Position numbers and translations under genes: made by a program. Under the pieces are notes generated by a model that ran no database searches, was not told the origin of the DNA, and saw only the letters and a list, made by a program, of their open reading frames with translations. DNA of 61,053 bases, the filler included, from Dugesia japonica (taxonomy: Eukaryota): assembly GCA_001938525.1 (NCBI GenBank). It is 6 parts of 6 records of this genome, joined end to end, with 100 filler letters (N's around TTAATTAATTAA, not from the genome) between each part and the next. Parts side by side here need not be neighbours in the genome. Positions count along the whole stretch, not along the records: positions 1 to 13,763 come from MQRL01419954.1; 5 more parts are not named here. One strand, written 5' to 3'. Below, in pieces: positions 10,203-13,763 of this stretch. Position 1 is the first letter of the stretch. Each line of letters opens with the position of its first letter.

Positions 10203-10403
10203 CCAATAAGAACCTAGAAAATAAACATGAAACAAAGACCAGAAAATCACATGGCAACTTAAAAATAGCCACCAATAGACACTCTAAAAGTCTTAGAAAA
10301 ATTCTGAAACTCAGCACCATTACCAATAGAAAACGAAAAAATTTGAGTTAAAAATAGGAACCAATGACAATGGTGTCGAGATGTATCGGGGAAGCTATAT
10401 AAA
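10203..10403 (+). promoter_or_regulatory. Pol II promoter: four CCAAT boxes followed by TATATAAA
   Basis: CCAAT at 10203, 10272, 10323 and 10361; TATATAAA at 10396-10403; related ATTGG boxes in copies A and D; TATA conserved in copies A, B and F. Confidence 0.65.
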
Positions 10404-11504
10404 CCCCAGAAAAAACTTAGAAAACCACCTTAAAATTTCTCGTTATTCAGCATCAATTATTGTGTGAAATCATACCGTGCCTGATACGAAATATTGTACA
10501 CGTTATTGGAGAAATCAGTCAGTGAAAAATTCCACCTTTACAGCGGTTTATTTTTAGAAAAGTAACAATTGAAATTATTGGTTGCATTTTAGAAAAATAG
10601 AACCGGTAAATATCAGAAGCGCAAGTGAAATATTTTAGTCAAAAATCAATATCGACAACATTCCCGTTGCAGCTACGAGAAAATTATCAACAAGTGAGTA
10701 TGCGTTTAATCTGCTTGATAAGTTGTATGTCAATAATTGTTTCAGTATATTTTTTTGTATGGAACGAGTATCAATAAATAAACATTTTTAATTTGATTTA
10801 ACTATCTAAATTTCTATAGAAATTAATAACGGGAAAGTTCCTCGTAAGATATAGTTGAGTGTTAACTTAAATGAAAGCGCGACAAATGTTATTTTCCCTC
10901 CAACTCAATATTGAATAATTCTAACACACCGATTAAGGTGAAGTAATTAGCCATGCATGCATAGCTCTCCTATTGGAGTAATATCTAAATCCCATTTATG
11001 TTTTTAGCACTGATAAAATTAACTATTCACGCATATCGTGATACAATCGGGATTTGGTCAATGAATAAGAAATTTTTGTTTTGGTTGTGCACTAAAGCTA
11101 GCTGATTATATTTCAACGTGCTCATATGCAATAGCTCAGTTGGAAGCAATGTGTGTGATATTAGTTGTAACAAACCAAGTCCTAATTAATGGTGACTAAA
11201 TCACTCTTCCAATGAGTCATTTCCACAAGCCATAATTCATATCAAATATTTGCAGTATCACTATAACCAAGGTTCTTTGGTAGTCATATCTTGGCAATTA
11301 GTGTATGGAAATTTTGCTTATTTCAATGCGACCGGGCCAATTTGGAATTATTTATTATGCTTTGAACAGTGTCCCTTTGGGGAATCTTCTCAAAATTGGA
11401 ATATGTCCTTTTTGTTGCTCAAATTTTTCATGCAACCATATTCATGGATATTGCTCACTGTTACACTGACAAACACCGCTGATATTTTTCATAAAAATCA
11501 GGAG

Positions 11505-11670
11505 ACATAAGGTGCTCAAACTAATTCGGAAACAGCGTGAGACCGTCAGATTAAGACAGTTAGTGGCCCAACTATTAACAAGGGGAAAATAGAACATCCA
11601 GACGAAACGGATTTAGCTTGCTTCGTGGAGATGTTCCCCTCAGTGATCCCCACAGATATCGATGCATAGA
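11505..11670 (+). pseudogene. Cargo ORF remnant (VLKLIRKQRETVRLRQLVAQLLTRGK/IEHPDETDLACFVEMFP)
   Basis: One-base frameshift at ~11589; conserved with the copy A peptide. Confidence 0.65.
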
Positions 11671-11842
11671 GTATCCCCTTTTTAAACAAGAATGCGACCC
11701 GTCAATTGCTGTTAATTGTTAGACAATAACTTTGCACGTTGAATAATTATATTTTGTTGTTTATTTCTACTTTTCACTAATTAAACTAGACTGAAAAATC
11801 TCCTATATTATAATTTAAACAAAGCTTCGATATAATTATAGA

Positions 11843-12199
11843 ATGGAATCTATCTGGGAAAGGATAATCAATCGACGAACCCGTCGAATAATCTTTCGGC
11901 GACATCACAACCCCTACAATCATGACGCGGGCATCTTAGCCGACAGGTCTAATTTGCCCCCAGTGGAGTCCATTGTAACTCGTTTAAGAGATTTTGGAGA
12001 ACGTCAGCAATATCAAACTTGAACGGGCCCCGATCGAACCCTTGCGATGAACTTCCGATATCAGCCTACAATGCCACCCCCAGCTCCCGCGGTACAGGCC
12101 TTTATCTCTTACCTTCTCTGGGGGGTTAGGGAGCCAACCGGAGTGGCCGATAGTGAAAATACAGCACCCAATGTTGACACTAATAATAATCCCCAATGA
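11843..12199 (+). pseudogene. Cargo ORF (MESIWERIINRR...), one internal TGA
   Basis: 118-codon frame following an ATTATAG acceptor; GC-rich relative to flanks. Confidence 0.5.
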
Positions 12200-12356
12200 A
12201 TGTTGTTTTGTTTTAGAATACGAATAAATAGGTGTCTTGTTTAGAGTTCAATTATATTATATCTTCACGTTAAGATTAAGATAAACTTCTGTTTCCAGTT
12301 ACATTACGTTGTTGTCTTGTTCTTATCTTCGTAATTAATAAAAAATAATATTTCAG

Positions 12357-12724
12357 TGCATTCCTCCCTGACCAAATCGCAGGCTCCAAATAAAAAGCTG
12401 TGGGAAACCAGTAAAGACCTGGATCTCACCTGGGATCTGTATAAGTGAGCCAAACGACGATGGGAGGCCGAGATAGCCACGGCTCATAGTAAGGTGACCA
12501 GGTATAAGAAAAAATGTATCGCCTTCAGAAAAGAAGTAGAGGCCTCCCACCTACAGGAACGAGCCTGGAAAAAACAGGTTTAATCCTTTGCTGAAGTTAT
12601 CCGGTCCGGCCATGACCGTGAAAATAAACTGGTTGAAGATATTTTACATCTCCGAACTCGTATACCCCTCGAACCGTTGATGATCGACAAGAGCACTCAG
12701 ACCCCCGGAAACAAATTATCTTAA
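12357..12724 (+). pseudogene. Coiled-coil cargo exon (CC1-like) with C-terminal KSTQT
   Basis: Follows a TTTCAG acceptor; 121 codons with two stops; ...FAEVIRSGHDRENKLVEDILHL resembles ...MADNIKTYANREEVLISTVRTL of copy B. Confidence 0.55.
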
Positions 12725-12832
12725 TTTAGTTATAAATAAACTTGTTATCTGAGATTTTTTTACAATTTTATCTTAATGGTTCATTTAATTTCTTTAGTCA
12801 AATTAGATTATAATAATCAAAGCTTCTTTTAG

Positions 12833-13224
12833 TGCCTCGTATCAATTTCCCTAACAATCTTCGCCGGTGTCATCGTATCATGCGCCGCCTTCTGATCGAA
12901 AGACACTTGAAGTGTAAGACCGACCGGCCTCTACTTAAGCATTTGTCCCAGAGGGATAGATTGAGAAAGACGTTGGACTCAATCGTGAAGAAGCAGAACG
13001 ATCTAGCAGTCCAAGCTAAAGCATTGGAAGCCAAAACCAAGTAATTGCTACCGAGGAAGATCGAGTTTTTAAAACAATATATCGCCGATCTTTCTCGCCA
13101 GATTGGCAACCCAGATTGGGTCCCTTGGGACGATAACGACGATGTTGCCGCCTTTGAGTTTGAGGCAACTAACCTGGATCAGTGGTTAGACCCTGGCGCG
13201 CCAGATGAATTAGAAATGTCATAA
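12833..13224 (+). pseudogene. Last cargo exon, basic coiled-coil then acidic tail, one internal TAA
   Basis: Follows a CTTTTAG acceptor; frame continues past the 13044 stop to ...DPGAPDELEMS*; AATAAA at 13291. Confidence 0.5.
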
Positions 13225-13763
13225 TAATATATGTTTCAAGTATCACTGGCTTAAAATTTTGTGTATGATGAGGGAAAACTAATGAACCCGAATAAAAAGG
13301 CTTATCGGTGTGCAACTCCCATTAAGAGAGAGGTCAACCACCATATGCTGAAAACCTGACCTAGGGGCGTTAGGTTAAATTCTTGAAAGGGTCCCCTGAG
13401 GGCTGATTTTTCCCCAGCCACACTATTCTCCATCCAACTCAGGTAGGACCCCAACAATAATAATACATTTCTTGTGTTTAAACCTGACTCATAATCTATT
13501 ATTTTATTATTTATAATGATCATGATGATTTATTCTGTTTTCCTCTATAATTTCTCTCTAAAATATCAAAATATTTTAATATAATTATTTGTTTTAATCT
13601 TTCTTTTTCTCTAATCAATATAATTTTATTTTTAATACATGGATATTTTCAACACATTTATACAAATTATAAATAATAATAGATATTCCTTGTTTTATTG
13701 ACATTCTTCTTTTCGATTACTTTGACTTATTTTCTGAGCACATTTTACCTTAGCCATCTAATT

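Follow-up and report, generated by a model that had tools for sequence, protein, structure and literature searches.

Does one decayed repeat copy in a planarian genome encode several small proteins from a single promoter, by joining one leader to alternative 3′ exons? The question is raised by a 61,053-nt stretch of Dugesia japonica DNA (GenBank assembly GCA_001938525.1; the whole stretch is called the window here), in whose first part (MQRL01419954.1, positions 1 to 13,763) an initial annotation had described a promoter, a leader donor and a series of open reading frames (ORFs) behind splice acceptors. We found that these features belong to a repeat copy with definable ends, unit A (Table 1), and that its design recurs in a second, diverged family of units nearby. 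It is likely that unit A is a decayed repeat copy that holds a promoter and small genes under selection, whose expression most probably relies on alternative acceptors and a start codon split across the splice joint. A decayed solo long terminal repeat (LTR) appears to be the best fit for the unit itself, and the explanation as a whole, an old solo LTR carrying an alternatively spliced multi-ORF cassette, is marginally probable. The unit ends at 9708 and 13456, a fourth coding block (block 0) at 11491-11669 and the reading phase of exons beginning AG/TG (a slash marks the splice site) go beyond the initial annotation.

Seven related pieces lie in the window, and pairwise comparison divides them into two families, units A, B and C versus units AL, F and E, with piece D as a weak outlier; the copies compared throughout are those in the window and in the sequencing runs. 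The 5′ start of unit A also opens copies at 2598(-) and 59548(-). In run X1, many contigs are 85-90% alike across most of unit A, and depth is very high at its ends, indicating that the unit A family is multi-copy.

Coding constraint is seen where two copies can be aligned. Block 0 shares 63% identity over 30 aa between units A and B (30 codons, proportion of synonymous differences pS 0.88, proportion of nonsynonymous differences pN 0.25), and the CC1 exon of family 2 shows a similar excess between AL and F (83 codons, pS 0.82, pN 0.28). Shifted frames lack this pattern for both, and block 0 and CC1 are under purifying selection. Block 0 also has an outside homologue, the 60-aa protein P0121, which matches the unit B ORF at 26 of 58 positions (45%) with the same starting Met; it was the one protein found among 1.84 billion in a block 0 profile search (E 1.5e-12), and it comes from one contig. 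A structure model of block 0 contains three short helices (pLDDT 77), with no Foldseek viral match at E≤0.001 and a best VIA-align Z of 3.9.

The GC-richer coding blocks reported at acceptors 11841, 12356 and 12832 were confirmed, with GC content rising from 0.21-0.25 to 0.43-0.52 across the AG. Blocks 1, 2 and 3 hold one, two and one stops in the named frame versus 6 to 11 in the other sense frames, and AT-rich spacers of 108-193 nt separate the ORFs. Where blocks 1 and 3 each have their one stop, the X1 contigs carry a sense codon instead (5/5 for each block), which indicates that these stops are private decay of this copy. Eight X1 differences listed within the ORFs comprise two silent changes, four residue changes and two at the block 1 and block 3 stops, too few to judge selection on blocks 1-3, and these blocks are single copy in the window. 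In run X8, poly(A) reads (15 and 21) of a diverged relative keep the block 2 frame over 20 flanking codons, with about half of the residues identical by eye. Judged from sequence, the blocks are real genes, with coding constraint established for block 0 and CC1 only.

The four CCAAT boxes and the TATA box (TATATAAA) described previously are present, and unit A has a single TATA. The CCAAT boxes are more numerous than chance would give (Poisson P ~1e-4, against an expectation of 0.25 in 211 nt), and their register is kept at boxes 2-3 in unit B (2/4 exact) and boxes 1-3 in unit C (3/3 covered) at 62-65% overall identity. The predicted leader of unit A, 270 nt long, contains no ATG; shuffled versions of it average 4.6 (P 0.002), and ATG is missing from 51 of 2659 background windows. 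The first ATG after the leader, at 10700, falls just inside the predicted intron. Leaders are ATG-free in all four copies (270, 306, 97 and 112 nt; shuffle P 0.002, 0.03, 0.31 and 0.19), and all four end in A before the GT. In family 2, the TATA box and the donor AA/GTAATT align between AL and F.

At the other side of the predicted introns, the AGs end at 11841, 12356 and 12832 as described, and the 7487-7975 ORF does have its ATG directly after an acceptor (TTTATAG/ATG). The best GC step lies at +31, +6 and -3 nt from the AG of 11841, 12356 and 12832, respectively; at five of seven acceptors it is within 6 nt, and at the other two it is at +14 and +31. Three exons start AG/TG in the phase in which one upstream base completes a codon. 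The first Met of these reading frames comes late, at residue 109 of 122 in block 2, 17 in block 3, 12 in the CC1 exon of AL and 61 in that of F; F lacks the AL Met at 12 but retains the codons that precede it. A CAG/TG acceptor before CC1 had been reported as conserved in three copies, under labels (B, C, F) that could not be mapped onto ours: it is aligned in two family 2 copies (7294 in AL and 58342 in F), but a third has TAG/TA (33297), and the remnant at 39830-40330 is without a clear acceptor. At the 3′ side of the blocks, stops lie at the GC-to-AT edge and no donor-like site occurs in the last 60 nt in seven of eight blocks, an arrangement that speaks against a single multi-exon protein. 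Branch-point motifs were not fixed in position.

Scanning both strands of the window yielded 51 acceptor-like GC steps. An AG/TG followed by an open frame in the A/TG phase was found at 3 of 10 sites inside the units versus 0 of 41 outside (Fisher P 0.006, or 0.03 with AL and F counted once). Because the leaders are ATG-free and end in A, the exons are TG-phased and the scan is enriched inside units, the likely mechanism is acceptor choice with A/TG formed at the joint. As for the env gene of gypsy, the leader has no ATG and its last base would complete an in-frame ATG.

Under the explanation that we prefer, unit A would be an old, mutated solo copy of the unusually long terminal repeat of an LTR retroelement, and this repeat would carry a complete RNA polymerase II unit: a CCAAT/TATA promoter, an ATG-less leader exon, one donor and four short ORFs, each preceded by an AT-rich spacer that resembles an intron. 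Splicing would join the donor to one acceptor at a time, with each mRNA translated from its first ORF exon. For exons starting TG (12356, 12832 and CC1 of family 2), the last A of the leader would complete the start codon; those starting ATG or AATG (7975, 11843) would supply their own and need no leader base. The products would be small proteins of helical or coiled-coil type, most likely regulators or adaptors that the element encodes.

Hints at such roles come from the blocks of unit A. Block 1 has an Arg-rich N-terminus and a Pro-rich part. Block 2 ends near DKSTQT, which fits six of seven positions of the LC8/DYNLL binding motif (pattern from the available part of PMC3078936) and is one of only two LC8-pattern matches in six frames of the window. 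Block 3 runs from a basic helix through a coiled coil to an acidic tail, and its structure model shows long helices with an acidic tail. From their sequence features, the cassette proteins may be dimerising, nucleic-acid-binding or trafficking factors that act as small regulators or adaptors of the parent element. Searches of Pfam (15 proteins) and PHROGs (6 proteins) gave no significant family for the cassette ORFs, with sub-threshold coiled-coil matches only. A word-index protein search restricted to near lengths found no homologue for block 3 or CC1, and the ESM Atlas gave no match at 0.9 for the 162-aa ORF of AL and none usable for block 0. The 162-aa ORF has no homologue elsewhere in the window and is absent from unit F. 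Homology between CC1 and the 12356 exon was not established (17-18% identity, E 0.03-0.15, at the level of coiled coils), and neither known accessory proteins nor linked gag, pol or env were found within the units.

Several observations count against this interpretation. An A precedes donor-like GTs commonly in the window (209/522). The donor AA/GTGAGT at 10694 is present as described, but its conservation in the sister copy B is not significant: the alignment of the donor region between A and B was matched by 34 of 500 shuffles, the donor of B was picked after the fact, and this candidate homologue was not counted. The thresholds of the acceptor scan were set after the sites were known, and 12832 failed the filter. 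AATAAA stands at 13291 as described but is not specific, with about 8 per 3 kb of window and eight sites between 10700 and 13300. None of the seven joints listed, all from X1 contigs, is a GT-AG joint; with almost no reads on the exons, the RNA runs gave no power. One X1 contig reads through the 12199-12356 spacer without splicing, although X1 may contain DNA.

As to the RNA, a run search listed no RNA run as a source of the stretch but returned part of it in 6 of 24 rows, and four runs were aligned: three RNA runs (280, 56 and 41 reads) and X1 (1,469 contigs), the raw runs being covered in part (about 25, 25 and 6 in 100). The RNA runs have zero depth at 10356-11560, 11802-12283 and 12766-13247, and because this takes in the leader and most exons, the junction test is without power. 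The proposal of one promoter and one leader serving alternative 3′ exons gains from the promoter boxes, selection, ATG-free leaders, ORFs lacking a start and stops at block edges, but not from the low-coverage RNA, in which no GT-AG joint appeared.

Other ways of expressing the same ORFs have to be set beside alternative terminal exons. The ORFs could be real but read from their own starts (an internal ATG, or a GTG across AG/TG) or joined as consecutive exons, with the AGs placed by chance. Blocks 0 and 1 and the 162-aa ORF do have their own ATG, block 3 has one at codon 17, the G of the AG with TG makes an in-frame GTG, and the low-coverage runs showed no junction. We nevertheless consider this improbable: an ATG first appears at residue 109 in block 2 and at residue 61 in the CC1 exon of F, conserved coding begins at the acceptor, unit A has only one TATA, and the blocks terminate at stops by the GC edge, in seven of eight with no donor-like site nearby. 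It is quite unlikely that the ORFs form an operon-like polycistron in which spliced-leader trans-splicing acts at every acceptor and an AATAAA follows each ORF. Flatworm-type spliced leaders end in AUG, and such a leader would throw the AG/TG exons out of frame. Each ORF does have an acceptor before it, blocks 1, 2 and 3 have an AATAAA at 24, 11 and 67 nt past their stops, and trans-splicing is known in flatworms (PMC4558846, available part); however, there is a cis donor, which aligns between the family 2 copies, and AATAAA is common in the window. That the whole pattern is GC-rich debris in AT-rich repeat DNA, with motifs picked afterwards, is the least credible reading. GT, AG and AATAAA are indeed frequent in the window, and blocks 1-3 have no database family, but purifying selection, the outside homologue and the in-register promoter boxes speak against chance, which is largely refuted for block 0 and CC1.

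What kind of element carries the cassette is a separate matter. We consider, with modest confidence, that the feature most probably sits in a giant LTR. Ends of LTR type (TG...CA with short inverted repeats) are present in unit A; B and F start TATTGGG, and family 2 ends CCCAA(G/T)A. For a U3-R-U5 order, the promoter boxes are conserved and there is no pile-up of read or contig ends that would mark a start or poly(A) site. The 4-nt match ATAA/ATAA around unit A could be a target duplication, but its flanks are AAT-rich (8 and 4 ATAA), and unit F shows no target duplication. No primer binding site (PBS) or polypurine tract (PPT) lies beside any of the seven unit ends in the window, an absence expected for solo copies. 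No gag or pol is joined to an intact unit in the window, and D follows a gag-protease (gag-pro) remnant at which no LTR start is visible. In three X1 contigs, the 3′ end runs into a 5′ start through 19-22 AT-rich letters. Such joints are not expected of an ordinary solo LTR and weigh against the LTR reading. They lead from window position 13465 to 9699/9701 through an AAT-rich spacer at a depth of 8-16, and could reflect a tandem arrangement, more than one insertion into AAT tracts, or the junctions of circles.

The same joints invite a reading in which the cassette is real but the unit, with its short inverted ends, is a self-contained non-autonomous DNA element or a gene cassette of viral origin, inserted into AAT tracts or arranged in head-to-tail arrays and moved by some integrase or recombinase, which we rate as a minority possibility. 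Besides the joints with their AAT spacers, it is favoured by the lack of a PBS or PPT at every end, by variable gene content (the 162-aa ORF is in AL, not in F) and by a 2.9-kb R region with introns, which would fit LTR replication poorly. TG...CA ends with a short inverted repeat and a 4-nt flank match are more typical of LTRs than of DNA transposons, however, and the inverted repeat here is only 9 nt; none of the units holds a transposase, recombinase or polymerase, repeated insertion into AAT tracts would also yield the X1 joints, and a weak CC1 homologue lies downstream of a gag-pro remnant. Neither of two named non-LTR groups was matched. For a Penelope-like element or Terminon, an Rfam scan of the window (E≤5) gave two hairpin matches, neither of them here, and no hammerhead in the terminal repeat, with no reverse transcriptase (RT) in the units; for a DNA transposon with terminal inverted repeats (Ginger, pogo or Polinton), the inverted match is 9 nt and the units contain no transposase or integrase ORF. 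A non-autonomous DNA-transposon form of the unit is possible.

If unit A is a solo LTR with a spliced cassette, its parts have precedents in known systems, described here from the available portions of the papers cited. In complex retroviruses, accessory ORFs are mostly found between pol/env and the 3′ LTR and overlap tightly, unlike here, where AT-rich spacers separate the ORFs and gag, pol and env are not linked. Like HIV, HTLV and foamy viruses, the unit combines one promoter and donor with several acceptors, as predicted from DNA; in those viruses this layout yields small regulatory proteins (PMC7264820). The likening of the cassette to retroviral accessory genes in the initial annotation holds as an analogy only, since no gag or pol is joined to an intact unit and the cassette seemingly lies inside a terminal repeat. 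In env mRNA of gypsy and the springer subclade, the start codon is made at the splice junction from AT + G (PMC2585583; bioRxiv 2023.08.03.551782). Unit A would resemble Drosophila gypsy env in making a start codon from leader donor and acceptor, but differs in joining A + TG, in having several short ORFs where gypsy has one acceptor and one env ORF in its internal region, in encoding no env-like protein and in holding everything inside a terminal-repeat-like unit.

A further parallel is the EBNA-LP transcript of the herpesvirus Epstein-Barr virus (EBV), whose alternative acceptors are 5 nt apart on one exon, unlike the separate genes here. In both, acceptor choice would set whether a start codon exists, as described for the splicing of W0/C2 to W1′ (bioRxiv 2025.04.23.648900). 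Burro/GYPSM1, the giant gypsy elements of planarians, and Ogre of plants have multi-kb LTRs and accessory ORFs (PMC6431247), and the present window is likewise AT-rich and gypsy-rich. Compared by description, those accessory ORFs are internal, as are the extra ORFs of plant elements (PMC7264820), and the portions available describe no spliced LTR cassette. In taeniid cestodes, ta-TRIM solo LTRs give rise to transcripts of their own R region, from start to poly(A) site, and have 4-nt target duplications (PMC4558846); unit A is predicted to transcribe its R region likewise, but ta-TRIMs are small and non-coding, whereas the predicted transcribed part here is about 2.9 kb and protein-coding. The available parts of PMC8532177 and PMC11410931 held nothing on LTR structure. 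Our literature search found no spliced multi-ORF cassette described within an invertebrate LTR; subscription papers and Repbase were outside its scope, and the repeats may be named there. Splice-made start codons are already known, and several alternative ORF exons in what appears to be an LTR-like unit were not found described.

Solo LTRs are regarded as non-coding debris that can supply promoters at best. Should these units be LTRs, every solo copy would amount to a complete transcription unit with several genes. Annotation tools would overlook those genes, since several lack an ATG at the DNA level. With a start codon that arises only through splicing, host or element could switch protein output by splice control, which is known for gypsy env and would here span several genes. 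A further question is how such a repeat, given its introns and internal poly(A) signal, withstands reverse transcription and read-through. More tentatively, there may be a class of invertebrate element in which the terminal repeat, or else the entire element, acts as a portable mini-operon with introns: a single promoter and ATG-less leader would serve a variable set of small genes through acceptor choice, splicing would make the start codon and every solo copy would be a stand-alone protein source; two diverged families share the design, and the head-to-tail joints would hint at spread other than by ordinary LTR retrotransposition.

Table 1. Coordinates of unit A, its related pieces and their predicted features in the window (a slash marks a splice site).
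Feature	Position	Strand	Details
Unit A, family 1	9708-13456	+	3,749 nt; ends TGTTGGGGT / ACCCCAACA
5′ terminal inverted 9-mer, TG start	9708-9716	+	ATAA at 9704-9707
CCAAT boxes, four	10203-10365	+	motif positions 10203, 10272, 10323, 10361
TATA box	10396-10403	+	aligned with TATAAAAA at 1991(-) in B
Predicted leader exon	10424-10693	+	no ATG; ends CAACAA; start placed at TATA+28
Predicted splice donor GTGAGT	10694-10699	+	AA/GTGAGT
Block 0, decayed ~59-codon ORF	11491-11669	+	frameshift; ATG and AG lost at homologous places
Block 1, 118-codon ORF	11843-12199	+	own ATG 1 nt behind acceptor 11841; one in-frame stop
Block 2, 122 codons in A/TG phase	12356-12724	+	TTTCAG/TG; coiled coil; two in-frame stops
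DKSTQT, candidate LC8/DYNLL-type motif	12686-12703	+	near block 2 end; 6/7 motif positions
Block 3, 130 codons in A/TG phase	12832-13224	+	TTTTAG/TG; one in-frame stop
AATAAA, candidate poly(A) signal	13291-13296	+	160 nt before unit end
3′ terminal inverted 9-mer, CA end	13448-13456	+	ATAA at 13457-13460
Unit B, family 1	1-2598	-	cut by window edge; start TATTGGGG; TATA 1991
Intact block 0 ORF of unit B	264 to 88	-	behind TTTAG/TTC
Unit C, family 1 promoter remnant	28735-29140	-	three CCAAT boxes
Unit AL, family 2	6797-9620	-	TATA 9231; donor AA/GTAATT 9106; end CCCAAGA 6797; 5′ end not found
CC1 exon of AL	6944-7294	-	TTACAG/TG; 116 codons open in A/TG phase
162-aa coiled-coil ORF of AL, intact	7487-7975	-	ATG directly behind TTTATAG
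Unit F, family 2	57716-59548	-	TATTGGG...CCCAATA; TATA 59296; donor AA/GTAATT 59156
CC1 exon of F	58342, stop 58025	-	TTTCAG/TG
D, weak CC1 homologue	33172-33297	-	behind TTTAG/TA; cut by gap; tblastn E 0.04-0.15
E, family 2 3′ remnant	39830-40330	-	shared end and CC1 C-terminal trace

Short motifs near the 3′ ends of the units are conserved far above their surroundings. One, at 13376-13406 in unit A, is common to a more abundant family, with a depth of 4338 in X1 and reads also in X8 and X11; the other occurs at 6985-7010, 57905-57930 and about 39995-40015 in AL, F and E. Both are possible cis signals. The family 2 DNA motif had no matches in metagenomes and viral contigs, and the 5′ end motif matched 39 metagenome loci, none of which (0/39) was otherwise alike. 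Terminal folds were unremarkable except at the 3′ end of unit A (z -2.3, rough shuffle), and a hammerhead-like stretch near 13270 was rejected for core mismatches by eye and the lack of an Rfam match. The AT-rich flank of unit A at 13457-13763 has an X1 depth of about 3200 and may be another high-copy repeat or a displaced 5′ part of unit AL.

The surrounding window is AT-rich (GC per kb 14-41%) and crowded with decayed mobile elements. A gypsy element at about 2880-6606 has RT and a zinc knuckle (Pfam), and a protein search with this RT returned gypsy relatives; further gag remnants and one pogo-type transposase make up other mobile debris. The gypsy LTR of 129 nt (AGTTATG...CATAACT; window 6478-6620) has a purine tract before it and a PBS immediately after, and marks tandem gypsy elements, the second broken at 6797 by unit AL. 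The reverse complement of this PBS (GGCGACCAC at 6607) lies in the sense strand of units A (9749-9758 +) and AL (9005-9013 -); the word occurs at these three window places only, resembles what we take to be a tRNA 3′ end, and in unit A is part of a small palindrome. No tRNA genes were found in a scan of the window.

At 33841-35922 (-), a decayed gag with a CCHC knuckle and a protease-like region without pol is followed by the CC1-like exon D, about 550 nt downstream, and the remnant with D could be a deleted parent element. A large inverted repeat (23587-26337 and 31356-33048), whose arms code tandem CENP-B-type helix-turn-helix units with a period of 237-252 nt, surrounds the pogo-type transposase (28054-28821) and unit C. 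An ORF at 20727-21065 (+) resembles ribosomal protein L6 by eye, with no Pfam match at E≤0.1, and may be a strongly diverged L6 copy or exon. Gaps of N with the TTAATTAATTAA spacer (13764-13863, 23292-23391, 33072-33171, 42181-42280 and 52467-52566) produce false repeats, and the joins across them are putative. The decayed ORF at about 56000-57715, apparently broken by unit F, resembles a Polinton-type protein-primed DNA polymerase in its motifs. A 58-nt tandem array and four palindromes resembling miniature inverted-repeat transposable elements lie at 45893-46552, 26504-26696, 38213-38336, 43391-43514 and 60916-61053.

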